Below are positions 2,669 through 44,029 of a stretch of DNA of 64,000 nucleotides, piece after piece; within the stretch, counting starts at the first letter, position 1; each line of letters begins with the position of its first letter. The DNA is from an uncultured Methanosarcinaceae archaeon (GTDB lineage Archaea; Halobacteriota; Methanosarcinia; Methanosarcinales; Methanosarcinaceae), in assembly GCA_963733675.1 (NCBI GenBank), contig CAVTET010000004.1:512001-576000 (forward strand), read 5' to 3'. A model generated the notes under the pieces. That model was given only the letters and a program-made list of their open reading frames with translations, ran no database searches and was not told where the DNA came from. A program made the translations under genes and the position numbers.

Positions 2669-4645
2669 ATGTTTGGGCCAAGTAAAGAGAAAGGATTTAA
2701 GGTGGATAATAACTACTTAATGAAGTTAATTTCCTCTGTTTTTCCATTAGCTATAATCTTGGCAGTATTATTAACGTTCTTATGGATGTTTGCCATCGGA
2801 AGGTTTGGTTATGCACTTCGCGGACTATTTACAGGAATACCTGCAGTACTTTCCTGCCTATTTGTGTTGTTTATTTACAAAAAAGATGTAAATTTACATG
2901 ACATATACTTTCCTTCATCTCTAAGCACAAAATCCCTTACATATCTATTCGGAATATTTTATATCAGTTCCCTTGTTGTACTACTGCTTTCTCTTGGAGA
3001 TAGACCCTGGTATTATTTCATCGTTATTCTAATGCTGTACCTTTCGGTAGTCTTGCAAATATTCTCTCAAAATGCAAGTTCTTCCCTTATCCTTGTAGAA
3101 TCTTTCTTAATCATGATTAATCTGATTTACAGTGTTACGTTAAATTACGCTTTCTACTTTGGGACTACAGATATACTTCCACACATATTTTTTTCAGAAC
3201 TTATCGCTTTTTCCGGGCAGATAATTCCGGCTTCATTAAGCGATTACGCATATTTTCCTCTATATCATATACTTGTTGCAGAAGCCTCCGAGATACTTAA
3301 CACAAGCACAAAGACCTCGCTCTTTCTGATAACTGCGCCAATTTATGCAATTACTATCATTTTTCTTTACTATTTTTTTAATTTCATAACAAACAATCGT
3401 CAAATTTCCTTGCTTTCATGCTTATTATTTTCAGTGAGTTCAATTGTACTGTATTACGGTGTCAATGTAATCACTCGCACAATGGCATTTATAATGTTTG
3501 TTATATTAATATACCTTATTTTTAGTGTCAATTTCAAGAAAGATAAACTATCTTTAAAAATACTTTCAGTAATCGTTATGGTTTTTTTAACCCTGGTCCA
3601 CAATGTTTCCTTTCCCCAAATAGTCGTATTGCTGGTTATTTTGTTTGTTTCCGAATATATAATCGGAGACCGTAAATATATTAGTAAGCCATTTTTTGTA
3701 TTACTTAATGTTACTTTCGTTTCATACTGGTTTTATGTAGCCTACTTGTTTGTTCAAAGAAGTCTGACCCCCCGTTTACAGAGCCATCTTTGGGATTCTA
3801 TGGTCTTAACTGCTGGAGGTGCAGAGGTACTTCAGGAGGGCTTGATTAGTTTAATAGGCCTTCTGGATAAATCCATATTTTTATTTTTTGCCTTAATTGG
3901 AATAGGTTTTCTTCTGAAAAATTATAAGGACAATTATGCTTCTGTTTTAGGTTTATTTGCCTTTTTGACCCTGATATTTTATATTCCAAATCCTCTCAAC
4001 ACTATATGGCAGCTTAATGTCCTTTTTAGAGTTGACAGATTCATGCTTCTTGTTAGCCCTTTTATGGCTTTCGTAATGGGTTATGGAATGTACCTATTCT
4101 GGAATTATATCTCTAAATATGCCCCTAAAAAACTAAATTTATTCTTTGTAATATTTCTGTTATTCTCTGTATTTGTCTTGATCTCTTCGATCTACAGTAT
4201 TGGTGATTCGAGTCTTCTTGGCCAAAACGCTGAGCATCAATACTTCACTTTTGATGAATTGAAAGGTTTTGAGCATATTTTCAACTATAGTCCTGTTAAT
4301 TCTTCGATTTACACAGATTATTATACTACAAGGTTTTTTTATCTCCCATTGATTCCTCATACCTCTGCGGAAATGAATTTCGCACCTTATAACGATCATA
4401 GAATCGGTGATATAAATAAAATCATACAGTACAGAGGCTATACAGTGATTAGAACGAGGGAATTTCTAAGGAGTGGCTTATACTTCGGCATTGGTGAAAG
4501 TACTCGTAAAGAAACTCCTAATTATTTCTTTAAGGGAGTACCCCAAAATAAGCTCGAGCTAGGACGTAATCTTGCAACTCTTAATAAAGTATATACAAAT
4601 CCCTCAATTGAAATTTTTGTTCCGCATTCGGGACTAAACTCTTAA
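2669..4645 (+). CDS. Polytopic membrane protein in a glycosylation cluster (possible GT-C fold or polysaccharide polymerase-like)
   Basis: 658 aa, about 13 hydrophobic segments and a soluble C-terminal domain; follows two GT2 genes. Confidence 0.7.
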   Translation: MFGPSKEKGFKVDNNYLMKLISSVFPLAIILAVLLTFLWMFAIGRFGYALRGLFTGIPAVLSCLFVLFIYKKDVNLHDIYFPSSLSTKSLTYLFGIFYISSLVVLLLSLGDRPWYYFIVILMLYLSVVLQIFSQNASSSLILVESFLIMINLIYSVTLNYAFYFGTTDILPHIFFSELIAFSGQIIPASLSDYAYFPLYHILVAEASEILNTSTKTSLFLITAPIYAITIIFLYYFFNFITNNRQISLLSCLLFSVSSIVLYYGVNVITRTMAFIMFVILIYLIFSVNFKKDKLSLKILSVIVMVFLTLVHNVSFPQIVVLLVILFVSEYIIGDRKYISKPFFVLLNVTFVSYWFYVAYLFVQRSLTPRLQSHLWDSMVLTAGGAEVLQEGLISLIGLLDKSIFLFFALIGIGFLLKNYKDNYASVLGLFAFLTLIFYIPNPLNTIWQLNVLFRVDRFMLLVSPFMAFVMGYGMYLFWNYISKYAPKKLNLFFVIFLLFSVFVLISSIYSIGDSSLLGQNAEHQYFTFDELKGFEHIFNYSPVNSSIYTDYYTTRFFYLPLIPHTSAEMNFAPYNDHRIGDINKIIQYRGYTVIRTREFLRSGLYFGIGESTRKETPNYFFKGVPQNKLELGRNLATLNKVYTNPSIEIFVPHSGLNS

Positions 4646-5070
4646 CAAGGCATAAAATCAATGTATAAATAAACTCTTAAAAATCAAGAATTTTAAGGAT
4701 CAATTTGATTGATACATGTGGATTCACGAAAAAATGCAGTTTCTAGTAGACGCGGAATGAAAAGTGAAATATAAATATCCAGGAGTTTTTGTAAAAGCGA
4801 AACGATTTTTTTTCTCCGAACGAAGAAAAATTGGGTATAAGAAGGGCATGAAATTTTTTTAATAACAGGCATAAATAAAATGAGAATAATTTTCGAATTA
4901 CCTTTTTGACCATTGATTTCATCATTACTTTGGCTGGAAGGTTGTTTTAATTTCGATTTTTTAAAAAACGTTATAATACTACTTAGTAAATTTTCATTGA
5001 AGTCTCAAATATATTATTTTTAAGCATATGGCGAAATATAGAGATTCATTGAGATCCTCTACAATAAGCT

Positions 5071-5468: not shown

Positions 5469-6323
5469 GGTTCCGTTGCAAAAAATCCTTTCTAATGATA
5501 CAATAGAATAAAAAGAAAACCAAAGATAGTAACATGCTATCTAATTCCTTTAAATGGAAGCATTATGAAGGGGAAATTATCTTATTGAATGTAAGATGGT
5601 ACTTAAAATATGCATTAAGTTATAGAAATTTAAAGGAAATGATGGCAGAAAGGGGAGTAAAAGTCGACCATACAACAATCATGAGATGGGTACATCAATA
5701 TTCTCCTGAAATCGAAAAGAAGATAAGAAGACATTTAAGACTAACAAACTATTCGTGGAGAGTTGACGAAACCTATATCAAAGTAAAAGGTAAATGGAAA
5801 TATTTTTACCGAGCAGTTGACTCAAATGGAGATAAAATTGATTTCATGTTAAGTTCAAAACGAGATAGAAAAGCAGCAAAGAGATTCTTTAAGAAAGCTT
5901 TAAGTTCTAATCATAATCAAATTCCAAGATTAATAACCGTTGATAAGAATCCAGCTTATCCACCTGCTATAGATAAACTAAAAATTGATAAAATACTACC
6001 TAAAAACGTAGGCATTCGACAAATCAAGTATTTGAATAACATTATAGAACAAGATCACAGATCTATAAAGAGAATCGTTAATCCAATGTTAGGATTTCAG
6101 TCTTTTCGATCTGCTAATAAGACTTTAAAAGGAATTGAAGCTATAAATATGATCAAAAAAGGACATGTAATCGATCTAAATTACTCTGTTCTTAATGAAG
6201 TCAAATACATTAATCAATTATTTGGTATAGTTTTATAATGTTAGTACATTTTCCTTGAATGTTTTGATTTTTATTAATCACTTATAGATTTACATATTTT
6301 TTTGAAGTTTTTGCAACGGAACC
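5469..6323 (+). mobile_element. IS6-family insertion sequence, complete
   Basis: TIRs GGTTCCGTTGCAAAAA / TTTTTGCAACGGAACC around one transposase ORF; no 8-bp target duplication seen. Confidence 0.93.
5534..6238 (+). CDS. IS6-family DDE transposase
   Basis: FKWKHY..EII, WRVDETYIKVKG, TVDKNPAY, NNIIEQDHR motifs; 234 aa. Confidence 0.95.
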   Translation: MLSNSFKWKHYEGEIILLNVRWYLKYALSYRNLKEMMAERGVKVDHTTIMRWVHQYSPEIEKKIRRHLRLTNYSWRVDETYIKVKGKWKYFYRAVDSNGDKIDFMLSSKRDRKAAKRFFKKALSSNHNQIPRLITVDKNPAYPPAIDKLKIDKILPKNVGIRQIKYLNNIIEQDHRSIKRIVNPMLGFQSFRSANKTLKGIEAINMIKKGHVIDLNYSVLNEVKYINQLFGIVL

Positions 6324-29018: not shown

Positions 29019-29875
29019 GGTTCCGTTGCAAAAAATCCTTTCTAATGATACAATAGAATAAAAAGAAAACCAAAGATAGTAACATGCTATCTAATTCCTT
29101 TAAATGGAAGCATTATGAAGGGGAAATTATCTTATTGAATGTAAGATGGTACTTAAAATATGCATTAAGTTATAGAAATTTGAAGGAAATGATGGCAGAA
29201 AGGGGAGTAAAAGTCGACCATACAACAATCATGAGATGGGTACATCAATATTCCCCTGAAATAGAAAAGAAGATAAGAAGACATTTAAGACCAACAAATG
29301 ATTCGTGGAGAGTTGATGAAACCTATATCAAAGTAAAAGGTAAATGGAAATATTTTTACCGAGCAGTTGACTCAAATGGAGATACAATTGATTTCATGTT
29401 AAGTTCAAAACGAGATAGAAAGGCAGCGAAGAGATTCTTTAAGAAAGCTTTAAGTTCTAATCATAATCAAATTCCAAGATTAATAACCGTTGATAAGAAT
29501 CCAGCTTATCCACCTGCTATAGATAAACTAAAAATTGATAAAATACTACCTAAAAACGTAGGCATTCGACAAATCAAATATTTGAATAACATTATAGAAC
29601 AAGATCACAGATCTATAAAGAGAATCGTTAATCCAATGTTAGGATTTCAGTCTTTTCGATCTGCTAATAAGACTTTAAAAGGAATTGAAGCTATAAAATA
29701 TGCATCAAAAAAGGACAAGTAAATGATCTAAATTACTCTGTTCTTAATGAAGTCAAATACATTAATCAATTATTTGGTATAGTTTTATAATGTTAGTACA
29801 TTTTCCTTGAATACTTTGATTTTTATTCATTACTTATAGATTTATATATTTTTTTGAATTTTTTGCAACGGAACC
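29019..29875 (+). mobile_element. IS6-family element, second full-length copy
   Basis: Same TIRs and near-identical sequence to 5469-6323. Confidence 0.93.
29084..29722 (+). pseudogene. IS6 transposase with C-terminal frameshift
   Basis: GCTATAAAATATGCATCAAA versus GCTATAAATATGATCAAA in copy 1 (2 extra bases) truncates the product to 212 aa. Confidence 0.8.
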
Positions 29876-30568: not shown

Positions 30569-31615
30569 TCAATGTGTCAATTTCTTCAGTTTTGAAAGCT
30601 CCTCGGGAGTTCCTACAGCCAATAGAACTGAGTTCTCTCGAATTAAATCTTCTGCCTCCGGCTCAAAGGAAAGAGTACCACTTTTCCATATGCCTACAAT
30701 TTTAGCACCTGCCAAATGCTGCTGGTTGGAAACTTCCTTAAGCCTCTTGCCTATAAGAGGACTTTTCAGATAAATAGGAAACTCAACTATATGAATCCCT
30801 TCAAAAATTTCAGTTGCTCCTGTAACTCGACTTACGAGTCTGTCCATCGCTTTTTTCCCGATAAATTGTCCGAACATTGATTTTGGAGAAACAACCGTAT
30901 CATGCCCCTGCATACTTGAGGTATTTTAAGTTTGAAATATCTTCAACAATAGCAATGATGTAAAGATTTTCAAATTCTCGGGCAGTTAAGACAACATTTG
31001 CATTTTTTTCGTCAGATTTGTTTGCAATAAGGATTACAGCTTTCTCGATACCTGCATTTATAAGTGTCTGCTTATCGCTCAGGACTCCAAAAATACAGGG
31101 AATGCTCTTATAAGAAAGTTCTCTTATTAATTCTTCTTCCTCATCAACTATTACAAACTGTAAATTCTGCTCAGACAATTCATCGATCAGGGTCTCAACC
31201 ATCTGATTGTATCCGCAGATAATTATATGATCTCTCATCTCAGAAGAGACCTTTCTTGGCAACCTAAACTTGATAGTATTGTCCATCCAAGGAGTTATTA
31301 CATAAGTGATAAGAAAACTCGAAATTAGAATGACACCTACAATCTGTATAATTATTGAAAAAGTCTTCCTCCTTGGGAAGTGAAGACTACATCACCAAAT
31401 CCTACAGTTGTAATAGTAGTTGTAGCCCAATAGATAGCAGTGATAATGTTTGCATTTTCGGGATGGTTCTCAAGAACCATAAGATACTCAAAAATCAAAA
31501 TATACAGGATAAACAAGAGCACCGCTGCGATTTTATATGCTACCTTATGCTTTTTGTGAATTATTTTCCGAAATCTGGATCTGAGATTAATTTTCTTTAT
31601 CTTCGAGGTAAACAT
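30569..31615 (-). pseudogene. Potassium channel (2TM pore + RCK/TrkA-N + TrkA-C), broken by two frameshifts
   Basis: TTVGFGD selectivity filter; HIIICGY Rossmann motif; TrkA-C tail; frameshifts near 31355 and 30902. Confidence 0.85.
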
Positions 31616-32285
31616 ATTTAAAATCCTTCCCTAACTCCATGGTATAAATTGAGCTGAAATACCATGTGACCATCACTGACAATATATAAGAATACGTTCC
31701 AACCATCCAGCAATTTTTCATTTTTTGATCAGAATATTGATTTCAGTACTTCATCACCTAGCTCAGATAATTTGTAATTCCCTACCATTTTTCACGATTT
31801 TTATAGAAAAGTAAAATTAAATATTATTTCTCAGATTATTCATCCCAAGTTCGAGTTGATAGAGAAATAATAAAAATTCCCAGCTGAAATTGGCCTGAAA
31901 CACATCTAATCAGCTTATTTTTGGATATAATGAGGATAGAATAATCACAAAGCTTAATCTATTGGATTATATCTACAAGCTAAATTACTCTAATATTTTT
32001 TCATTCAGTCTGACTTAATATTACTTATATTAATCACTCTATTTGAGATTCGAAAACAGCTTTTATGAGTAGTCCCATGAAACCATTTTTAATTTATCAA
32101 AGCGAAATATATCCTAGTCAATTGTTTTTGGGACCGGATAGTCCTTTCCGAATTGATTTTATTGCAACATGATCCAGCAATTTAGAATTAACAACGAAAT
32201 TAGAGAGGATTTCGATAATCTCCTAAATATTGAGATTAGATTGAGATTTTTCGCTTAGATATATTTAAAGTTTTCTTTGGTTCCA

Positions 32286-32370
32286 GCCCTGCACCTAAAG
32301 TCCTATTTTAGCTCGACTTTAGGTGCAGAAATTAGACATTAGGTGCAAAATGTACTTTAGGTGAACAGCC
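32286..32370. mobile_element. 85-bp MITE with 10-bp target-site duplication
   Basis: Ends GCCCTGCACCTAAAGT / ACTTTAGGTGAACAGCC; TTTGGTTCCA at both 32276-32285 and 32371-32380. Confidence 0.75.
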
Positions 32371-32560
32371 TTTGGTTCCATTAATTTCGAATTTTCATCA
32401 GTTCTGAGATCATTTCCAAAAATTAGAAGAATATCTAAAAATTATTTTAATGTAATGAAGTAGTTGATTATAATGACGAAAAATGACTCACACCTGGTAT
32501 AATACCTTCAGTTTACTCTATATACCTCTTAATGATTTAGTATCGTTGATATAACCGATA

Positions 32561-32691
32561 TTCTACAGATGTACACATATTTGGAATTTGTTTGCCTATT
32601 TGCCAACTATTAATTTATGGAAGTTAAATTAATTTTTAAGCTGCGGTTATATTGAGAAAAGATATGGCATCCTTGTGCGCATCCGCAGAAA
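32561..32691. mobile_element. MITE-like family A, copy 4
   Basis: TTCTACAGATGTACACA...TGTGCGCATCCGCAGAAA; colinear with 46891-47021. Confidence 0.7.
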
Positions 32692-33906
32692 GTAGGATTA
32701 AAGAAAGATATGGTAAAAATCAAAATTTCAGTGGCATACCCTCATTGCAAGCAGCTGGGAATGTTCACAATGCAGCTCTGGATATAAGGAATTTATTCAG
32801 AATCAAATTTTTTAATTTACTTCTATTGATACTTTCACACCATTGTTCCCTGATTTCAAATATTTTTTAATGAACCGAAGGTTGTACGATCACCAACATT
32901 CCAATATAACCTCTATGACCTCCAAAGGCTAACTACACTAAATCTTTTTTGATCTCAGACCATTCTTTAAAGATTTGTCTTGCTGTGATAATTCTCATAG
33001 TATGTATCTATCATCTCCCTCGATTTCATTAGTAATTTAGAAATCTAAATAATTCAGGAGTCTTTCAGGATTTTATAACAAAGTCTAACATTAATTCGAT
33101 ATCTTAAACAAACTTCAGAAAATATTTGAGTCAAAAAAATAAATAAACGAAAGGAATCTATAAAATTTTATTAAAAAGAGTTAAAAATGATATCTAAAAA
33201 GGGGGACTTGAACTTATTAAACATTTCATAGGTTTGTAATTTAATTAGTCAAAGATGATAATAATACGCTTAATTAAGATATAATATACTCCAATATCCA
33301 ATCAAAATAAACTTTTATTTCGTAATATTATATAAGTAGGAGTTATAATATCCTAAAAAGAACTAAAACAGAAATATTTTAGAAATAGATATTCAAGATA
33401 ATAAGTAGTTCCTATAAAATCCTCAAAAACTACTATTTGTAAGAAAAACTAATTCTATAGACTTTATATAATTTAATATATATAGTTAGATATAGTCACT
33501 GGCAAGCAAAAATTAGACTTTTATGGGTCAAAACAAAGAAAGAATGCCAGATAATTTAGCAAAAAAATGCTTAAGTTATATAACTTGAGGGGGGTATTAT
33601 AAGAAGCATTATCTGCAAACATTTCTTGAAGACTTAAGGAGTGTAGTTCAGCAAAGGATACACAAAATAAGCATGGAAGGAAAATAAATAAGGAAGGAAC
33701 ATAAATAAGCACGAAAAAACCAGACGTGCGGAGGGATAATATGTTTACCTTCAATATAAAGATGAATCAATTGTTTAATACAGCAACAGCACACGATCTA
33801 GCACTCAGATTCCATATTTAATCTTAATTACTAACAGTTAAAATTCAGTTGAGCAATTAGCACATAAAAATTACATGAGCGACAACCTAAAGGGGGGAAA
33901 ATTTAA

Positions 33907-33990
33907 ATGACTTATTTGGGTTTCAATTTTCAGTGCCTTAAAACGAAGCTTGATATGACAAGAGCCAGAGTTATTCAGAGTACGGACTGA
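33907..33990 (+). CDS. Putative 27-aa peptide MTYLGFNFQCLKTKLDMTRARVIQSTD (unit 1)
   Basis: G-rich leader before ATG; differences from sister copies in codons 1-25 are all synonymous. Confidence 0.6.
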   Translation: MTYLGFNFQCLKTKLDMTRARVIQSTD

Positions 33991-34127
33991 TAAAGCTACA
34001 AAAGCCATTCAGGGAAATCAGTTTAAGAAGAGCTACCAGAAACAGAAGTTCAAACATTAACACTGATAGTATAGTTCTCAAACATAAGGAAAAAACTAAC
34101 TAGAAATACAATATGGGGGAAATTTAA

Positions 34128-34211
34128 ATGACTTATCTAGGTTTTAATTTTCAGTGCCTTAAAACGAAGCTTGATATGACAAGAGCCAGAGTAATTCAGA
34201 GTTGCGACTAA
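34128..34211 (+). CDS. Putative 27-aa peptide MTYLGFNFQCLKTKLDMTRARVIQSCD (unit 2)
   Basis: As unit 1; CTA/TTT/GTA synonymous variants; TAA stop. Confidence 0.6.
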   Translation: MTYLGFNFQCLKTKLDMTRARVIQSCD

Positions 34212-34348
34212 ACCCACAAAAGCCATTGAGAAAAATCAGTGTAAGAAGAGTTACCATAAACATAAATTCAAGCCTTAACACTGAGAGAATAGCTCTCAAA
34301 CATAAAGAAATGTTGACAGAGACGCACTAAGAGACGGGGGAAATTTAA

Positions 34349-34432
34349 ATGACTTATCTAGGTTTTAATTTTCAGTGCCTTAAAACGAAGCTTGATATGA
34401 CAAGAGCCAGAGTAATTCAGAGTTGCGACTAA
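34349..34432 (+). CDS. Putative 27-aa peptide (unit 3, ORF identical to unit 2)
   Basis: ORF identical to unit 2 while the downstream spacer differs. Confidence 0.6.
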   Translation: MTYLGFNFQCLKTKLDMTRARVIQSCD

Positions 34433-34575
34433 ACCCACAAAAGCCATTGAGAAAAATCAGTGTAAGAAAAGTTGCCAGAAACGTAAATTTAAGGCTTAAT
34501 ACTGATTGTAGACGTCTCAAACATAAGGAAAAGATGGACAGAGACGCACTAAAAGAGAGAAGGGGGAAAATTTAA

Positions 34576-34659
34576 ATGACTTATTTAGGTTTTAATTTTC
34601 AGTGCCTTAAAACGAAGCTTGATATGACAAGAGCCAGAGTCATTCAGAGTACGGACTGA
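34576..34659 (+). CDS. Putative 27-aa peptide (unit 4, same peptide as unit 1)
   Basis: TTA/TTT/GTC synonymous variants; TGA stop. Confidence 0.6.
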   Translation: MTYLGFNFQCLKTKLDMTRARVIQSTD

Positions 34660-34795
34660 TAAAGCTACAAAAGCCATTCAGGGAAATCAGTTTAAGAAGA
34701 GTTACTAGAAACATAAGTTCAAAGCTTAACACTGATTGTAGAGGTATGAAACATAAGGAAAGATAAATCAGAAATACAAGACGGGGGAAATTTAA

Positions 34796-34879
34796 ATGAC
34801 TTATTTAGGTTTTAATTTTCAGTGCCTTAAAACGAAGCTTGATATGACGAGAGCCAGAGTAATTCAGAGTTGCGACTAA
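34796..34879 (+). CDS. Putative 27-aa peptide (unit 5, same peptide as unit 2)
   Basis: TTA and ACG synonymous variants; TAA stop. Confidence 0.6.
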   Translation: MTYLGFNFQCLKTKLDMTRARVIQSCD

Positions 34880-35136
34880 ACCCACAAAAGCCATTGAGAG
34901 AAATCTATGTCAGGGATTTACTGGAATAGGACTTACGCACTAGAAATATAAATTTAAGTACAATATACATTTTGATTTGAAGCATATTTCAGACAATTGA
35001 AGGTTTAATGCTATTAATTTACAAGTTTAACTGCGTGAGTCCTACAGGAACATAAGTTCAAAACCTAACCCTGATTTTTGACGGCTGAAGAATAAAAAGG
35101 ATAAAAAGAGATGCATTAAAAAGAGGGGGAATTTAA

Positions 35137-35220
35137 ATGGATTTGACGTTTTTTGATTCTTTGAACCTTAAAAATATTAATAATCTAAACAATGTCATTG
35201 GCCGCCAATGGGGTTACTGA
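35137..35220 (+). CDS. Putative divergent 27-aa peptide MDLTFFDSLNLKNINNLNNVIGRQWGY (unit 6)
   Basis: Same leader, same ORF length, same post-stop ACCCACAAAA; F6 and L11-K12 retained. Confidence 0.45.
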   Translation: MDLTFFDSLNLKNINNLNNVIGRQWGY

Positions 35221-35479
35221 ACCCACAAAAACAATTGAGAGAATTTGGTGTCGACATATTTGCTAGAGATACCACTTATGCATTAGTAATATAAATTAAG
35301 GTACAACTTACGTTTTAATTTGAAACATATTTCTGAAGGTTGAAGGTCAAGGCTATAATTTTCACGTTTAATTGTGTAAGTTCTATAGAAACATAAATTT
35401 AAAATGTGACCCTGATTGTAGACGACTGAAAAATAAAGAAAAGATGAAAAGAGATACATTAAAAGAAGAGAAAATTTCA

Positions 35480-35578
35480 ATGTACTTCCTATCTCTTGAT
35501 TTTTTTGAACCTAAAAGTCATCTTGATCTGATAAAATTCAGAGTGTCATTAAGTGAGCTAAATAAGGCCAAAAATTAA
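35480..35578 (+). CDS. Putative divergent 32-aa peptide MYFLSLDFFEPKSHLDLIKFRVSLSELNKAKN (unit 7)
   Basis: Ungapped alignment to units 1-5 keeps L4, F8, K12, L15-D16, R21-V22 and S25. Confidence 0.45.
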   Translation: MYFLSLDFFEPKSHLDLIKFRVSLSELNKAKN

Positions 35579-37000
35579 CATTAAAGAAGTCAATATAAAA
35601 GTATATATAAAAATTGATCGAACGTATTCAGTTGCCTGCAGAGCAGGCAACTTTAAATTTCCATTTACTATACCAGATTCGTGACACTAAAGACAACATT
35701 TATTGTAATTTGTACTTCACTAACTAGTAGTCGATAATTCCAAAAGCAGATCTACTTCTTTTAATCCATTAAACGATGATATTCGACATAACTAACTGTA
35801 TTCTGCTTCAGTAAATGGAATAATGACTCCTTAAAAATCCCCTCTAGATTGGTCTTATAAGGTTAAATTCGAATCTAAAAACTCGAGTCTACAAGCTTAA
35901 TTAAAAGTTATTTGCATCTCATAAATAAGAGGATTTCTACAGAGCCAAAAGATATAAAGGAATGATTCGAAATAAGATCTTTTCATTTTAGATGCTTCAT
36001 TTTCTTCCTGATTTCTCTGATTTTCAATATAGTTTTGAAAGTTCGTCGGGAGTTGTAACATTGCCAACGATTCAAATGCAACTTCAATCACCACACAGTT
36101 CGCTATTAATAACTGTTTTTCAATCTCATATTATTTTTTAAAGATCTTCCTTGCTTGATACTTTTTATAATCTACCTTACTCTTGAAGGGGGATATTTTA
36201 ATCCAGCACAAACGTAAAAATGTACATGACCAACATCATTAAAAATTGCATAGACTCAAAAAAATATATTACCAATTTCAAAGCATATAAACTTCAATAG
36301 TTGATGATGTCATTGTCTAGAAGAAATTTTTTATGATACAACATATCGAAAACCATTTGATATCCTATTTAATAGGCACGATGATTTGTATGATTTATTC
36401 CATTTTAGAGCACAAAAATAGTTTAAATATGAATCCGTGATTTAATAAAGGTTCTCTGAAAAGTTTCTATCTCCGCAGCAAGCTTCTGGATATTCAACTG
36501 GAACCAAGATGGGAGAATAGAGTTATCAAAATAGTATGTGTCAAGTGAAAATGAATTATGACACATGAAAAATGAGTCAAGGTTACAACTTTAAGATACA
36601 AACTTCCAGTAAAATTATTCCTGAATTATGAATAAAATTCAACTAAGAAAGAAATCTAACGCTTCAAGTCAATTAATAGATACATAAACTCTAAAAATAT
36701 AATCAAAAAAATCACAACGTGGTTTATTGGCGACTATACATAATTTCTACGTCATAACCCTACAACATTGAATTTTTTAGAGAAATTTATAAAAAAATAA
36801 GATTGAGAGATATGAACCAAGTTTTTTCGTGTCACTATTGAAGGAAAAATATAATTAATAAGAGGAATCATTCTAAGCTACAACAAATCAAACCTGCCGA
36901 AAATTGAGCATCTGAAGTAATTAAAAGTTAGACAGGTCAATGAAATCGCAGCACAACTATAAGGAACAGCTAGAGATGATATATTTAAATACTTCAACCC

Positions 37001-38245
37001 TCAAGAAAACATTTTGCTAAAAATTGATGCTTTAAAATCTACCAGGAGCTTGAGCCTGTAATCCTCAAGAAGCACCTTGCGAGTGTTTTCTAGGGGAACG
37101 CTGAGAGAAATCTCTTTTGTCCGGCCATAACGACCTTTGCTTACGACCACTGCGTTGACTATTCCCAGCATATCAAGTTCAGACATCAGGTCAGTAACCC
37201 TGCGTTGTGTAAGGATATCTACGTCAATGTGATGACAGAGTTGGCGATATACATTATACATTTCTCCTGTTGTAACATTTTTACCCTCTCGGCCTCGATT
37301 TCGCAGCAAGATAATACTATATAGCACGAGTTTAGACTGCGTGGGGAGAGTCCTTACGACTTCCACTACACGATCGATTTCAATCTTTTCCTGAGCACGT
37401 CTGACATGCTCTTCAAGAACCTTGGGCTGGTCTTCCCTTTCTGCAATTTCCCCTGACACACGTAAAAGGTCCAGTGCGCGACGAGCATCACCGTGTTCCT
37501 GGGCTGCAAAAGCAGCACATAGTGGAATTACCATCTCGCCCAGTACACCATCATTGTAAGCCATTTTTGCCCTTTGTTTCAAGATGTCACTGATTTGCTC
37601 AGCATCATAAGGAGGAAAAATTAATTCCTCCTCACCCAGGGAACTTTTAACCCTTGGATCCAGAAACTCAGTGAATTTTAGATCGTTTGAGACCCCGATC
37701 ATACTCACCTTGGCTTTCTGCAAATCTGTATTAATTCTGGAAAGGTTATAGAGGACATCATCACCTTTTTTGATCAGCTTGTCGATCTCATCCAGAATTA
37801 TGATAACAACCTGCTCTCTGTAATCAATTGCTTCCTTAAACTTAGTGAAGACCTGATCAGTTGGCCAGCCAGTCATAGGAACATCTTCTTCGAACTGTCT
37901 AGCAAGATTGGCAAGTAGTCGATATTGAGTATCAATAACTTCGCAATTGATGTACACAACAGAGCAAAAAATTGATTTATCTTCACTTACCCTCTCAAGT
38001 TCCTTTCCCACATAGCGAGTAACAGCGGTCTTCCCTGTCCCTGTTTTACCATAGATCAGCACATTAGAAGGTGTTTCACCCCTTAGTGCAGAAACCAGTA
38101 TCGTTGCAAGGCCATTGATCTGCTCATTCCGGTGTAATAAAAGGTCAGGCGTGTAGGAAGGCCGAAGAACTTCTTTATTTTTAAAAATTGATTTCCCGTC
38201 AAGCAATTTTTCGAATAAGCCATCTAAAGATTGAGTTTTTATCAT
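37001..38245 (-). CDS. cdc6: Orc1/Cdc6 replication initiator
   Basis: Walker A GKTGTGKT, Walker B ILDEID, GDARRALDLLR, winged-helix C-terminus GRYGRTKEI. Confidence 0.96.
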   Translation of the reverse strand: MIKTQSLDGLFEKLLDGKSIFKNKEVLRPSYTPDLLLHRNEQINGLATILVSALRGETPSNVLIYGKTGTGKTAVTRYVGKELERVSEDKSIFCSVVYINCEVIDTQYRLLANLARQFEEDVPMTGWPTDQVFTKFKEAIDYREQVVIIILDEIDKLIKKGDDVLYNLSRINTDLQKAKVSMIGVSNDLKFTEFLDPRVKSSLGEEELIFPPYDAEQISDILKQRAKMAYNDGVLGEMVIPLCAAFAAQEHGDARRALDLLRVSGEIAEREDQPKVLEEHVRRAQEKIEIDRVVEVVRTLPTQSKLVLYSIILLRNRGREGKNVTTGEMYNVYRQLCHHIDVDILTQRRVTDLMSELDMLGIVNAVVVSKGRYGRTKEISLSVPLENTRKVLLEDYRLKLLVDFKASIFSKMFS

Positions 38246-38330
38246 GAACGACCCTCTAAAGGTTAATGAAATAAGAGACCTAATGAATTAAGACAATTGA
38301 TTTAAATTTGATATTTATAATGTAATCCAT

Positions 38331-38459
38331 TTTCTGCAGATGTACACAAGAATGCCATTCATTTTCTCAATATGATAGCAGTTTAAAATTAATCTAACTT
38401 CCAATGAATAATAATCTGGAACATACAAACAAATTTATACATTTAAATATACAGCAGAA
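38331..38459. mobile_element. MITE-like family A, copy 5 (upstream of cdc6)
   Basis: TTTCTGCAGATGTACACAAGAATGCCAT...TTCCAATGAATAATAAT. Confidence 0.7.
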
Positions 38460-39264
38460 TGTAAAATGTAAATAACTTATATTGAATTTTAATTAACAAT
38501 TGCCATCACAAGTTTAATTAATTGAAAATCTTGTTTAGAATTTCTTGTTTATGGGATAGGGGACTCTTCATATATTTAGGTCGATATACAGCTACTATTA
38601 ATATGTTTATTAATACATTATTTATTTGGAAAGGTATACTATCATATTTTTCAGACTCTCAGCTGCAGAATGAACCTACAAATTTTAATTTCAAATTTGC
38701 AGGATTTTTGGAAATCAAATTTCCTACAAAGATAATCTTTAAATAAATATCTTTAAACTTTACCTGCTTCCCGAAGCCATGTAAAGTCCCTTCAGACTGC
38801 CATGAATCCATAGCTATAGAATGTACTTCTTTACATAACTTTTTGTTCAAATATTTTTAGACGATGAAAATCAAATTTTTCGACAATCTAAAGTTATAGT
38901 AGCTGGGGGGATTTTGCTAAACCTCTGATTTTCACGAATTAATTATATATTATTCATAAATATATGACAAAATTGAGGAGGTTATCTAAATTCTCCTAGA
39001 ATAATACAATAGCTTTTTCTGCATGACTTTCCAATAGTTAATTTGCCACACATGGTTACTTAAAATTCATATAGTTATAACATTAGAATATATATAGGGA
39101 TGAAATGTTATACACCTTAAAGCGCTACCAGGACTTGATAAAACCCGTATTACATATTTTCTTTTATCAAATCTTTAGATGAAACTGATATATCAGCTCA
39201 TAATTTTAATCTATAATTGCAGTAGATGCAATGGAAGTACACCGTATTAATAGTTATGGTAATG

Positions 39265-39287
39265 ACCCGTCTATTTCCACTGGAAAG
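39265..39287 (-). promoter_or_regulatory. ORB-like origin recognition box
   Basis: Minus strand CTTTCCAGTGGAAATAGACGGGT matches the ORB core TTCCAGTGGAAA plus G-string; upstream of cdc6. Confidence 0.6.
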
Positions 39288-41049
39288 CACCTTTGATTTA
39301 AAAAATTACTAAATAATCACACTCTAGAGAGAAGTAGACATATAAAATAATGGATCGTAATTCCAAAAATATTGAAAATCTAATTTAAACCTACATTTCT
39401 AATGGAAATGAATATAACATTTTTCGGTTTTATTACTCCGATTCAAAGAATAAAATTTTTTACCGAAACTATAGCTGATTTTACATAGCTCAATTTCTTT
39501 ATTTAGATTTAAAGATTTTGAGTCTTTTCTATATTATTTAGTTATTGCAGCCAATTGCTAGTGTAACTAATGGTAAATTTTTACGATCCCCGAAGATACT
39601 AACAAGTCTCAAGATTCAACACTTTATCTAGACAATCAACGTTCCGAAGGAAAATTATGTAGTCACTCACAAGGCAGTTACCTGAATAGGTACGAACCCC
39701 CTATTCCATCCATCACAGATTGACAGTTACCTTTTCCCTAAGTTCCTATGTCCTTTGTACCATCGATTTCTTCACATATTTCCCCTTTTTGGATTAAAAA
39801 GAGACAAATCGGGCTTACCAAGTGTGATATCATAAATAATTGTACGTGCCTCAGATACTATCTATATATAAGGAGGCTTCTACCCATTTGCTGCAGTGAG
39901 TAACGAACCAGACAGCTATTTTTCCTACCTACTTGTCCAAGAACTTAATTCCGATTTCGATTATTCAACTTAAGAGCCTTATCAAATTTTAAAAAATTTT
40001 CCTTCATGATATTTTCATCATGTCAAATAATCCGAATTAGACTTCTAAATTTTTCTACGCTGTCATATGAGCTTGAAATATCAGCATCAATGCCAATGCA
40101 CTTTAAAGTAGGATTACTACAAATGGGAAAAGTGACACACAAGCAATTCATAGTATAATTTATTGGCAACCCATTAAATATTTGATTTTTATGATTAAAT
40201 GTCCATCTTGATAAATGCTTTCGTTTTCACGAGTTGGAACATGTCTGCTCTAACCTCACATAAGTGCGGAATATTTAGAATAAATTAAACTATTTTTATT
40301 GCAACTTTAATATATTGTGTAGCTAGTTTCTAATATTATTCAGATAACTTGAAAATAAAGAGTATTACTTGAGTTTTTTAAATCTTAATTGAATACAACA
40401 GGTATTTTAAACATAATGATTACTTCAGCTTCAGGCTTGCCTCAGAAAACTTTTTTGTTAAAATATATGGGCTCAAAAATAATACGAAGAGATTTCAATC
40501 AATTGAGAAATCAATTTTTGTAAATTGATCTACAACTGACTGCAGAAGTTTGTATTATTCGTTGAGACCAAAATCAGTAAAATTTTTCACGAGTAAAAAT
40601 TAATGTTAATATATTAAAAGGTCTCCAATGCTCAAATGCATAGGAGTTCATCGAAATTCTCTTGAATTTTTTCTTTGCAATCATCACTGTACTTATTCAT
40701 TTCTGTTAGAAACTGATTTATCTCTATAGCTCATCGCTGTTTATCTTCTCTTCAATCCCATTAAGCTCTCTGAAATGAGATTACAAAAAGTGTAAACATA
40801 TTAATAAATGACGCAGGCTTTTCACCCTCACGAACTGCTATTCCTTTAGAGTCGGAAGAAATTCCATAGCTTTCATTGTTTTAGACCCCCTTTTTGGATG
40901 AGAAAGATAACATTTGTATTTGCCATTGGAAGCTACATGGAGTTAATACCCTTCTCGCTTAATTTTCATACCTACTTCATCACAATAGACAATATACTAA
41001 AATATCAACTGTTCCCTTATCATATTTTCAAATTATTCTAAATTCCAAA

Positions 41050-41684
41050 TAAACTATCTTCCTGCTATAATTATGATAGCATAACATATGTTTGTTCACA
41101 CAAAATCATTAAAAAATTCATATAATATTTCATAGAACATAAACTAGTAGTTTTTGCAGTAATTTCTGAAGCTAAAATATTTGAACCAAACTGGATTGGA
41201 TATTTTATTGATTCAGGAAAAACAGCTTTATTTAATCCTACACTGTAAGGAAGATTCTTCATCTGGCTTCGATATTATGTGAAAATAAGATTTCGGTGAA
41301 ATATCTAAAACTTCGTCTTTTCCCATAAGCTTCAATTTCAACATCCTTACAAAAATATCCGTATTCTCCGCATTCATTCAAAGAACGATATATTAGCCAA
41401 TTAGAATCATTAACCATTTCAAAAGTCATTTTTGGATGAACTTCTTAACCTCAAGATATCCAGTCACACTTTTTGTAGCAACTCTTGGAATTAGGATTCT
41501 TTTTGACAAAAAAAATAAGTCGAAGAAGATTTGCTACTGTTATAAATGTTATGATTTTAAGCAAGATTTTTATAAGAGAAATCCTCAGTGATTTCTTCAA
41601 TTTGAGATTCAAGACTTTCATATAAGAAATAACCTTATTGTCTGAAGCACACATAGCAAGAATCTCTTCATGGTTCATCAGCAA
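41050..41684 (-). pseudogene. Decayed IS66-family transposase, N-terminal part
   Basis: MLMNHEEILAMCAS..., KKNPNSKS, LNKAVFPESIKYPIQFGSNILAS fragments. Confidence 0.65.
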
Positions 41685-41950
41685 AAAAAATAAATCATTT
41701 TACATCCAATTTTTCATCGTTCCGATGAAAAATTTTATAGTCCCTTATAGGCTATTTAATAGTTACGAAATTACTTTAAATTAATTATAAAATAATTAGT
41801 TTTGCATCAAAATATATTTTCACAGCAAAAGGTTCAAAGATGAAATAGCACTGTAGATGAGATTTACTATTAGCCATAATGTCTTAAAAATCCCATATGG
41901 CACAAAAATTAAGTACAAGGATTAATCTATAAGTAAAAGCTTAAATGTGC

Positions 41951-42023
41951 AGTCCTGTAGGGTAGTGGTCAATCCTTCGGGCCTTTGGAGCCCGGGACAG
42001 CGGTTCGAATCCGCTCAGGACTA
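41951..42023 (+). tRNA. tRNA-Gln(TTG)
   Basis: AGTCCTGTAGGGTAGTGG...CGGGC-CT-TTG-GA-GCCCG...GGTTCGAATCC..CAGGACTA; A1-U72 pair typical of archaeal tRNA-Gln. Confidence 0.95.
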
Positions 42024-42039
42024 TAAAAATATTTATGGC

Positions 42040-42850
42040 AGCCAGAATCAAATATTATTTCTCAATTATTGTTTGCGCTATTGTCACTGTGTAAAAGTAG
42101 GGAATAGCGAGAAACCTTTTTTTCTCAAAATATATTAACTGTCTGAATATATTCAACCAAAAATGTATTCTTTCCACTACCAACCTTCTTGCCCACAATA
42201 TGATACCTCTTTTTTTCTTATGTTTTCTCTCTACGTCTCCGAATATGAGCAGCATGTCCAGAATCGTCAACCAATTATCTAATATCATGAAAATCTTATC
42301 CTTGTTCATACATATATTCTAAATTATGACATCCTTATGAGATTTTTCAACTATTATGGCATTAAGAGTTCCTTAAAAATATTTTATCATGAAGATTGGC
42401 TCCATCCAACAGAACAGAAAGTGGAATGCTTTTACTATCTGTTAACATCTTCTTTTTTGTGGCTTTTTTGCCACGATTAGTGGAATCAGCTCCTTTTCCA
42501 GTTCCACCTAATGGTACTTTTGCCATGCTATATCACTTGCTTGTCATTCCCACTATAATCCTTTGTCATTATCATCTCATTAAGACCAGCTTTACACATG
42601 TTATCAAATAATCCTGATCTTTATCATTCCTGAAATCTATCATGTATGGTACTTGGAGCTCCATAAATCACGCTTTCCATTGGCAGCCAGTAAAGAACCA
42701 GAAAAAGTGGTTTTTTTCAAGACGATCTCAATAGATCAAAAGATGGCAATTTTAAAAAATAGAACTCAAAATGATTTTCAGAAACGTACTTTCCTACCAA
42801 GAAATTGTTTGACTAGATAAAATGTCAGTCGCTTGTATCTCCATAACATA
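42040..42850 (-). pseudogene. Decayed IS5-family (IS1031/IS427-like) transposase next to tRNA-Gln
   Basis: Fragments TGCQWKA, GAPSTIHDRFQE, KVPLGG..NRGKK..GANLHD, RLVVERIHFWLN. Confidence 0.72.
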
Positions 42851-43351
42851 CATAATTCTAAAAATATATTTCCTGGCAAATGCAGGAAGTAAATATGAAA
42901 CAAAATAAATATATGACTGAAATTATTATCCTCTAAAGGAATTCTTATCATTGGGATTCTTGATCTAAGATAGTTACTTGCAGATTAAAGATAATTTGTA
43001 GAAGATGATGCAGCACTGAATAAAACATTCGGGCCTTCTTGATGGTTATAATTTGATCCATCCAGTAAAGTAATCATAAGACAAAATTATGACATTAACG
43101 ATACAATATAATTCAGAATGTACAGACAATAAACCGACTGTGGCCACACTATAGGGGGTCAGTTTTCATTGTCAGAATCAACGACTTCATCAACTTCAGT
43201 AAGTATCTCGATTTTATTTCAACTGATAAAAATAGTCTCACAACTGGCGAGATTCATAGATACTTAATTAAGGCATAGAGCTATGTATTCTAAAAAATAC
43301 TAGCATACATATATATCCAAGTGTTAATTCAGATGTAATTATGGAGAAAAT

Positions 43352-44029
43352 ATGCAAGAAACCGAAACCAAACCAATAAAAATTCTGGGAATATCGGGAA
43401 GTCCCAGAAATATGGCAACTGACTTTTTGGTTCAGGAAGCTTTACAGATCACAAAACAAAAATATGGTGCAGAAACAGATTACTTTTCCTCCAAAGGAAA
43501 GAAGCTGAACTTTTGCATTCATTGCGATTTTTGTGTAAGGACAAAAGAAGGCTGTGTTCATAAGGATGACATTTCTGCCGAGCTGTACGACAAAATGATC
43601 TGGGCAGATGCCTGGATTATAGGGACTCCTGTATATCAGGGAACAGTTAGTGCACAAACAAAAACGATCATGGATCGCTGTAGAGCTATTGTTGCCAGAG
43701 ACCAGAAAATCTTTTTAAACAAAGTCGGGATGGGAATCGCAGATGGTGGAGACCGAATAGGCGGGCAGGAACCAGCCATCCAGACCATTCTAAACTTTTA
43801 TGTAATCAATGAAATGATCCCTATTGGAGGTGGCTCCTTCGGAGCAAATCTGGGAGGAACATTCTGGTCAAAGGATAACGGAGCAGAAGGGGTTTCCGAA
43901 GATTTGGAAGGCATGAAAAGCCTTAGAAAAACCCTGACGAAACTTATCCAGACAACTCATATGGTAAAAAAGGCTGCAGAAAACTCAATCTCAGAAACCC
44001 AAATTGTTGAGAAGGAGGACAAGAAGTAA
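43352..44029 (+). CDS. Iron-sulfur flavoprotein (Isf, flavodoxin-like FMN reductase family)
   Basis: ISGSPR, CIHCDFC-x6-C cluster motif, GTPVY, GGQE. Confidence 0.9.
   Translation: MQETETKPIKILGISGSPRNMATDFLVQEALQITKQKYGAETDYFSSKGKKLNFCIHCDFCVRTKEGCVHKDDISAELYDKMIWADAWIIGTPVYQGTVSAQTKTIMDRCRAIVARDQKIFLNKVGMGIADGGDRIGGQEPAIQTILNFYVINEMIPIGGGSFGANLGGTFWSKDNGAEGVSEDLEGMKSLRKTLTKLIQTTHMVKKAAENSISETQIVEKEDKK

Follow-up and report, generated by a model that had tools for sequence, protein, structure and literature searches.

Do five direct repeats in an archaeal genome, each holding a reading frame of only 27 codons, represent genes, or are they conserved as DNA or RNA in which the frames are incidental? 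This question is raised by a locus within 64,000 nt of contig CAVTET010000004.1 (positions 512,001 to 576,000; hereafter the window) from an uncultured Methanosarcinaceae archaeon. No part of archaeal genomes is charted as poorly as their small proteins, and ORFs (open reading frames) of 27 codons are passed over by gene callers. A sequence-only reading of the window had pointed to five repeats of about 221 bp with 84-nt ORFs and proposed that they encode a micropeptide. The comparisons described here lead to the conclusion that the five units are probably a selected, expressed coding array. The locus as a whole is probably a small operon of near-identical micropeptide genes and not a series of DNA-binding repeats or a structured RNA.

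Architecture of the tandem array

Tandem Repeats Finder identified one tandem array at 33894-34905 (period 221, 4.6 copies, 84% matches, score 1349) and also called a super-period of 447 bp within it. The array contains five ATG-initiated ORFs of 27 amino acids on the + strand, and the repeat call and the ORF list agree with the coordinates given in the sequence-only reading:

33892-33990, + strand: unit 1, G-run (Shine-Dalgarno-like) and ORF1 (33907-33990), ending in ...STD, stop codon TGA
34115-34211, + strand: unit 2, G-run and ORF2 (34128-34211), ending in ...SCD, stop codon TAA
34336-34432, + strand: unit 3, G-run and ORF3 (34349-34432), ending in ...SCD, stop codon TAA
34562-34659, + strand: unit 4, G-run and ORF4 (34576-34659), ending in ...STD, stop codon TGA
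34783-34879, + strand: unit 5, G-run and ORF5 (34796-34879), ending in ...SCD, stop codon TAA

All five encoded peptides read MTYLGFNFQCLKTKLDMTRARVIQS followed by TD or CD, so the T/C difference noted earlier at codon 26 stands against an otherwise common sequence. The alignment likewise reproduced exactly the silent variants that had been described. Codon 4 reads TTG/CTA/CTA/TTA/TTA across units 1-5 and codon 22 reads GTT/GTA/GTA/GTC/GTA; codon 6 is TTC in unit 1 and TTT in the remaining units, and codon 18 is ACG in unit 5. The same holds for the switch of the stop codon between TGA (units 1 and 4) and TAA (units 2, 3 and 5). Variants of the C-terminal tail differ in length by 3 nt.

A run of five to six G is located about 8 nt 5' of every ATG in the array units. 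It is complementary, with one G-U pair, to the CCUCC at the 3' end of the 16S rRNA of the same genome (...GGATCACCTCCT), and it is retained in every copy listed across the loci described below.

Distribution among related genomes

The array is the sole copy in its own genome, in which five matches at E <= 3e-37 were followed by a next best match of E 0.76. A DNA search recovered it in 2 of the 58 other genomes of the genus: four array copies are present in G066 and at least two in G019, where the array is cut by a contig end. At the peptide level, 3 of the 177 genomes of the family (the own genome included) matched at E <= 1e-10, and seven further hits had E values of 0.18-0.88. A profile that included two diverged units downstream of the array (u6 and u7, see below) added a fourth genome, G055, which exhibits relic units at the very start of its cdc6 contig. 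The assemblies of G019 and G055 are both broken at the repeat. Altogether, DNA, peptide and profile searches of the 58 other genus genomes revealed no related sequence beyond G019, G066 and G055, and active or relic units are present in 4 of the 59 species genomes of the genus, in addition to metagenome contigs.

The metagenomes were scanned with a 20-nt anchor covering codons 7-13, which yielded 12 loci: eight real arrays and four chance hits. In 185,579 species genomes, the anchor was found in two records that repeat arrays already counted and in five chance hits. Viral contigs gave 0 matches to the anchor, and a viral origin of the array was rejected on this ground and on the lack of a PHROGs match.

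In 18 further genomes of the genus, the syntenic 9-10 kb contained no array of about 220 bp, and blastn at E <= 1e-3 detected nothing there that resembles 31600-37000. Next to cdc6, other species were found to carry short tandem repeats of their own, specific to each species, with periods of 40-87 bp and two to six copies; none of these is related to the array. Judged by these searches, the micropeptide array is lineage-restricted, represents an apparently new family and is confined to a small clade.

Signature of purifying selection

A search with nhmmer retrieved 33 full copies of the unit, 32 of which start with ATG and stay open up to a stop that follows codon 27 or 28. These copies come from the array itself and from those in G019, G066 and the eight metagenome loci. 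The remaining copy (L091, 1820-1918) carries ATA in place of ATG and otherwise differs within the ORF at silent positions only; recent silencing, a sequencing error or the use of a non-ATG start would each account for it.

In a first test, codons 1-25 of 11 copies from three genomes were compared. Third codon positions made up 9 of the 11 variable sites and second positions none. Ten of the 12 minimal substitution events were silent in frame +0, as compared with two to seven in the other five frames, and random placement reached 10 silent events with P = 1e-5. The ORFs of 29-30 amino acids on the minus strand of each unit were rejected as candidate genes, as 10 of the 12 events are replacing in that frame.

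A second test was based on 20 distinct 75-nt cores, with minimal substitution events counted on distinct sequences. At least 19 substitutions were found, 13 of them silent and six replacing (simulated P = 3e-5). When the anchor codons, whose match was imposed by the scan, were set aside, 11 silent events stood against three replacing ones (P = 3e-5). In both silent-event simulations, the pattern of the units is therefore well beyond chance. Half of the six replacements affect codon 10, where C, S, G or N is encoded; T2N, K14N and M17K make up the other half. The crude ratio of replacing to silent change (omega) was 0.115, or 0.06 when the events at codon 10 were left aside, and five of the eight 4-fold sites are variable.

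Mean column identity was 0.956 for the ORF, as compared with 0.61 for the spacers; broken down by codon position, the ORF values were 0.973 (first), 0.988 (second) and 0.908 (third). Twenty-two of the first 25 residues never change. Variation is concentrated at position 10 and in the last two to three residues, where the tail is TD, CD or TCC depending on the lineage. With 32 of 33 frames kept, an omega of about 0.12 and P = 3e-5, the earlier proposal of a selected, dosage-amplified micropeptide gene below the cut-offs of gene callers is supported. Translation of the five ORFs is suggested by the same pattern.

Relic units as an internal control

Two diverged units, which were absent from the sequence-only reading, are located 3' of the array. 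They keep the layout of G-run and ATG, share no more than about 55-60% identity with the active units, and both contain a relic-specific insert:

34926-35004, + strand: relic-specific insert of about 120 nt; its second copy, at 35269-35347, is 80% identical
35121-35220, + strand: relic unit u6, G-run and 27-codon ORF at 35137-35220 (MDLTFF...WGY), open in eight loci
35466-35578, + strand: relic unit u7, ORF at 35480-35578; elsewhere with indels of 1 or 2 nt or with the ATG lost

Substitutions in u6 are mostly replacing and look neutral; the frame of 25-27 codons is nonetheless open in eight loci. In u7, indels of 1 and 2 nt or a lost ATG were found in several loci. The best-kept u7, from locus L088, reads MDFLFLDFFELKSHLDLIKFRVIQ and is still 46% identical to the main peptide, which indicates that the relic units are old paralogues and not chance look-alikes. 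Frameshifts, stops or a ratio of nonsynonymous to synonymous change near 1 had been named as signs against a selected gene; they are absent from the five active units and present in relic u7. The relics serve as an internal neutral control for the active units. With this control built in, the locus provides an unusually clean comparative case for protein-level selection on a 27-codon ORF.

RNA contigs and candidate transcription signals

Seven RNA libraries are among 20 public runs in which parts of the stretch occur. Contigs of four RNA libraries were compared, three from one study and one from another, and together they cover leader, ORFs and spacers. For example, record 2 of run X10 (33721-33954) bridges the leader and ORF1, a contig at 34202-34354 spans spacer 2, and record 11 of run X17, from the second study, bridges spacer 3 and the start of ORF4 (34430-34615). 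Record 29 of run X9 (34819-35981) extends from ORF5 through u6 and u7. The sole listed variant of an RNA contig inside an ORF is 34861 A>C, a silent change at the third position of codon 22. Contigs of runs X6 and X9, which belong to one study, start at about 33507, in one case after an 8-letter loose end, presumably the end of an Illumina adapter. The elements proposed for the transcript are as follows:

33463-33485, + strand: TATA-like promoter elements, TTTATATA at 33463-33470 and then a run of ATATATATA whose centre lies about 27 nt upstream of 33508
33508-33892, + strand (inferred): leader (5' untranslated region) of the putative transcript, about 385 nt, delimited by contig ends and conserved in eight loci
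36116-36166, + strand: cluster of T5-T6 runs (36116, 36134, 36162) past the last RNA contig end at 36089, a putative terminator

The promoter-like block is nearly invariant in all seven loci that reach it. Archaeal promoters carry a TATA-like box at such a distance from the start, and 33463-33485 is considered a candidate promoter because its distance to the contig ends at about 33507 fits this geometry. Oligo-T acts as a termination signal in archaea. On the + strand, a single run of at least five T occurs between 33508 and 35100, at 35075 and thus just past ORF5, as compared with eight runs of at least five A; further T-runs follow at 35149 and 35500, before the cluster at 36116-36166. Both the TATA-like box and the near-absence of T-runs up to 35075 fit one + strand transcript from about 33508 to about 36100, on which the five cistrons would reside together.

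An exact copy of TTTATATA is also located on the - strand at 35604-35611, just 3' of u7, in a block conserved in all seven loci that reach it. This word could be the promoter of an antisense RNA that runs back into the array, or an element of the + strand. The depth of contig words was 1086-1224 at 33614-33923, 266-404 in the array, 93-171 at 35004-36089 and 21-43 in cdc6. This 5' to 3' fall is only a hint of strong expression, as genes cannot be ranked by the depth of contigs and the runs had been selected because they contain the stretch. In all four libraries, the array and cdc6 were covered and no RNA contig was found on 32868-33301 and 36123-36990; as a lack of coverage proves nothing in such data, this distribution neither speaks against DNA carry-over nor sets the ends of a transcript.

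The leader was not found to be unusually structured (z = -0.91); of 93 pairs in its alifold structure, four are compensatory and 22 broken. Rfam 15 gave no match within 33500-36100 at E <= 1. A riboswitch or other structured RNA in the leader was rejected on the grounds of this z value, the few compensatory pairs and the lack of an Rfam match. The leader also contains a 26-codon ORF (33741-33821, + strand; MFTFNIKMNQLF...) whose ribosome-binding site is GGAGGG. Loci of the G019 type retain this ORF, in those of the G066 type it is deleted or stopped, and its silent and replacing changes are about equal in number. It is probably not a conserved gene, as it has been lost in the G066-type lineage.

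Properties of the encoded peptide

The peptide comprises 27-28 residues with a net charge of +2 to +3. Its grand average of hydropathy (GRAVY) is about -0.21 to 0.0 and its maximum 15-residue Kyte-Doolittle mean 0.23; no signal peptide, membrane segment or hydrophobic stretch was detected. This agrees with the earlier view that the peptide is not a transmembrane toxin. The description of the peptide as amphipathic did not hold for a helix, since at a helical moment of 0.18 about 95% of shuffles score at least as high. Over all variants, the maximum 18-residue helical hydrophobic moment is 0.18-0.20, a value reached by 4594-4757 of 5000 shuffles. A beta-strand periodicity was considered for residues 12-22, where the moment at 160 degrees is 0.86 (19 of 5000 shuffles), and rejected because it vanishes at 170 and 180 degrees. 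No match to the peptide was found in Pfam, NCBIfam, PADLOC, PHROGs or PDB sequences (Pfam, NCBIfam and PADLOC at E <= 10).

A model for the locus and its alternatives

In the proposed model, a single promoter, its TATA-like box some 27 nt upstream of 33508, would drive synthesis of a + strand RNA. This RNA would begin with a leader of about 385 nt, continue with the five 27-codon cistrons and their own G-run ribosome-binding sites and with the decaying u6 and u7, and end near the T-runs at about 36116-36166. The four- to fivefold repetition of the cistron would multiply the initiation sites and might thereby yield a high molar output of one peptide of 27-28 residues. Being soluble and slightly basic, the peptide could then act stoichiometrically by docking onto a cellular partner. 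This last step is tentative and, even for a coding and expressed array, somewhat less than an even bet; it was proposed because 22 of the first 25 residues are fixed, which may be read as a specific binding surface by analogy with the small proteins of Methanosarcina mazei.

Several observations weigh against this interpretation. The RNA evidence consists of assembled contigs, which give neither strand nor true ends nor a usable level, and DNA carry-over may account for the presence of array contigs in RNA libraries. The A5 at 33508-33512 is a T5 on the - strand, and the contig end at about 33508 fits a - strand transcript stopping there equally well. That u6 is open in eight loci despite neutral change suggests that short open frames can persist here without selection, by descent alone. 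Furthermore, every one of the four G066 copies carries both C10S and the ...STCC tail; copies are homogenised within arrays and hence not independent, and the P values are approximate. Conservation is also higher at third codon positions (0.908) than in spacers (0.61), from which it follows that gene conversion or constraint at the RNA level also acts. Finally, the suggested mode of action is drawn from the composition of the peptide.

Some alternatives accept that a peptide is made and assign it a different role. The units might encode multi-copy precursors resembling ribosomally synthesized and post-translationally modified peptides (RiPPs), with a 25-residue leader and a variable tail of two to three residues, or leaderless secreted peptides, which would act outside the cytoplasm or after modification. 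Such systems typically carry multi-copy cistrons in tandem on a single RNA. In the phenol-soluble modulin alpha operon of Staphylococcus aureus and in operons of multi-peptide leaderless bacteriocins such as aureocin A70, several related cistrons of 20-30 residues lie in tandem on one strongly expressed RNA, have their own ribosome-binding sites and lack a signal peptide, a layout that the 27-codon cistrons with their G-runs would share. The near-fixed residues 1-25, followed by a tail of TD, CD or TCC that often contains Cys, would suit a precursor as well. However, phenol-soluble modulins and leaderless bacteriocins are strongly amphipathic helices with a dedicated ABC exporter, and the archaeal peptide shares no sequence similarity with them and has a helical moment of 0.18 (4753-4757 of 5000 shuffles at least as high). 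The 30 ORFs of at least 100 amino acids in the 64-kb window include no radical-SAM, YcaO or lanthipeptide-type enzyme, no peptidase and no ABC exporter, although a distant locus might encode a modifying enzyme. This agrees with the earlier statement that no modifying enzyme or transporter lies nearby, and with the doubt about a RiPP. A core of two to three residues would also be unusual, Cys10 can be replaced by S, G or N, and the C-terminal Cys is absent in the G019-type lineage, so that this explanation is decidedly unlikely. Still less credence is given to repeats of the type I toxin-antitoxin kind, in which antisense RNA would hold a toxic peptide in check. The ldr/rdl (long direct repeat, LDR) and ibs/sib loci of Escherichia coli, to which the array was compared on account of its tandem direct repeats with tiny ORFs outside annotated genes, encode hydrophobic membrane toxins and possess promoters and antisense RNA in each repeat. 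Long untranslated flanks around tandem small ORFs, the unstranded nature of the RNA contigs and the conserved TATA-like word at 35604-35611, which could drive an antisense RNA, are in line with such a system. Yet the array peptides have no hydrophobic segment (maximum Kyte-Doolittle mean 0.23; GRAVY -0.10 to -0.21) and no match to a toxin family in NCBIfam or Pfam, as the doubts raised earlier about an LDR likeness had anticipated, and the units exhibit neither a TATA word nor another obvious promoter of their own. A - strand RNA over 33508-35100 would moreover hold eight oligo-U runs, a weak argument against a long antisense RNA. The toxin-antitoxin explanation is accordingly regarded as highly improbable.

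Other alternatives dispense with the peptide. If the array formed tandem small RNA (sRNA) modules or a repeat sponge or scaffold, the ORF would be incidental. Tandem intergenic arrays of short, near-identical noncoding units, each with its own promoter, are exemplified by NsiR1. The units described here are similarly short, near-identical and intergenic; unlike the NsiR1 array, they show a coding signature in one frame. NsiR1 itself is an sRNA of Nostoc (PMC9045159). The presence of the array in RNA libraries, the conserved blocks within the spacers and the better conservation of third codon positions would all be compatible with a noncoding RNA, and the case for translation comes from evolution alone. 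A 3-nt periodic, silent-biased pattern limited to one frame is not expected from it, nor are start, stop and G-run kept in 32 of 33 copies or tail variants that differ by 3 nt. In addition, the unit RNA folds no better than shuffles (z = +0.67) and belongs to no Rfam family, and a narrow test for unit promoters found no exact TTTATATA within the units; a noncoding function in place of a peptide is thus very unlikely. The setting of the array gave rise to one further idea, namely that the repeats are replication-origin elements, such as Orc1/Cdc6 sites or iterons, conserved as DNA. The array lies in a stretch of about 5 kb without long ORFs (about 31900-37000), 2.1 kb from an Orc1/Cdc6 gene (37001-38245, - strand). 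The Cdc6 protein is 94-99% identical in 54 of the 59 genus genomes, and in many of the genus's complete genomes its gene lies no more than about 1 kb from coordinate 1, which marks it as the origin-linked copy. The units also begin with a G-string, as do archaeal origin recognition box (ORB) elements. Nevertheless, 18 genus genomes with 94-97% identical Cdc6 show no syntenic array or similarity, DNA-binding sites would not give codon-periodic substitutions, and the stretch is present in RNA libraries, which leaves an origin element with hardly any probability at all.

Relation to known small proteins

Tandem micropeptide operons are known in bacteria. In archaea, no tandem array of one micropeptide was found in the texts of the literature searched (supplementary sORF tables aside). 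The closest relatives in kind are the small proteins of M. mazei, encoded by small ORFs (sORFs) on small-protein-encoding RNAs (spRNAs), among them the 23-residue sP26 and a Ribo-seq catalogue of 314 unannotated sORFs; in these accounts, several of the small proteins bind larger proteins (PMC11456600; bioRxiv 10.1101/2020.05.06.080432; bioRxiv 10.1101/2025.10.28.685009). As far as these accounts describe them, they resemble the array product in belonging to the same genus, in being well under 70 amino acids, in originating from short or intergenic transcripts and in having been missed by annotation. The array itself displays features of the spRNA type, namely an sORF of at most 70 amino acids, a ribosome-binding site and presence in four RNA libraries, with the strand inferred. 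It differs from the M. mazei genes, which are described as single-copy, in that one peptide is encoded four to five times in a row; the words "tandem", "copies" and "paralog" are absent from the main text of PMC11456600. Small archaeal proteins are consequently a known kind, and the encoding of one of them in a tandem array appears not to have been described in archaea.

RNA libraries from soil and peat in which this methanogen occurs contain the sequence of the array, from which it may be suspected that the peptide matters to the in situ life of these methane producers. A bolder and, on balance, unlikely scenario would view the array as a young, lineage-restricted family that was born in fast-evolving, ORF-free DNA by the origin and amplified to four to five cistrons under purifying selection while the older u6 and u7 are dying. 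Its product would fill a new role for an archaeal micropeptide, for example on the replication-initiation machinery or as an unmodified exported peptide. If this were true, gene birth, amplification and death would be visible in a single locus. The locus also offers a tractable example of the birth, amplification and loss of very short genes.

Genomic surroundings

The remainder of the window codes for gyrase, SRP19, a DEAD-box helicase, NikR, an Ech-type hydrogenase and glycosyl hydrolases. Two ORFs for DDE transposases of the IS240 family are located at 5534-6238 and 29084-29722. On the flank of the array opposite to cdc6, a K+ channel gene is split in three on the - strand (30569-31615), with Ion_trans_2 at 31352-31615, TrkA_N at 30900-31286 and TrkA_C at 30569-30913; either a frameshifted pseudogene or assembly errors would explain this arrangement.

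The array and cdc6 are bracketed by two inverted copies of a dispersed repeat of about 130-150 nt (32530-32700 and 38306-38425), which share 95 nt (32597-32691 and 38331-38425). The repeat has at least 41 matches in the genome, on many contigs and at 74-83% identity, and it resembles an element of the MITE (miniature inverted-repeat transposable element) type. The 95-nt inverted repeat was considered as an origin structure and rejected because of these matches around the genome. Loose ends of RNA contigs were found at the edges of the dispersed repeat, at 32584 and 38327-38333.

A second stretch of 5 kb without long ORFs (38250-43350) lies beyond cdc6. Reading TAG as pyrrolysine opens no ORF of at least 120 amino acids in the gap at 38.3-43.3 kb, and pyrrolysine read-through was therefore rejected for this region. 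An Rfam scan of 31000-44000 gave only three hits, all within this second stretch: a tRNA at 41951-42023 (+ strand), a sub-threshold PYLIS_5 match at 41299-41399 (- strand; 54.6 bits, where the cut-off is 60) and, at 39999-40134 (- strand), a weak match to a group II intron D1-D4 fragment.

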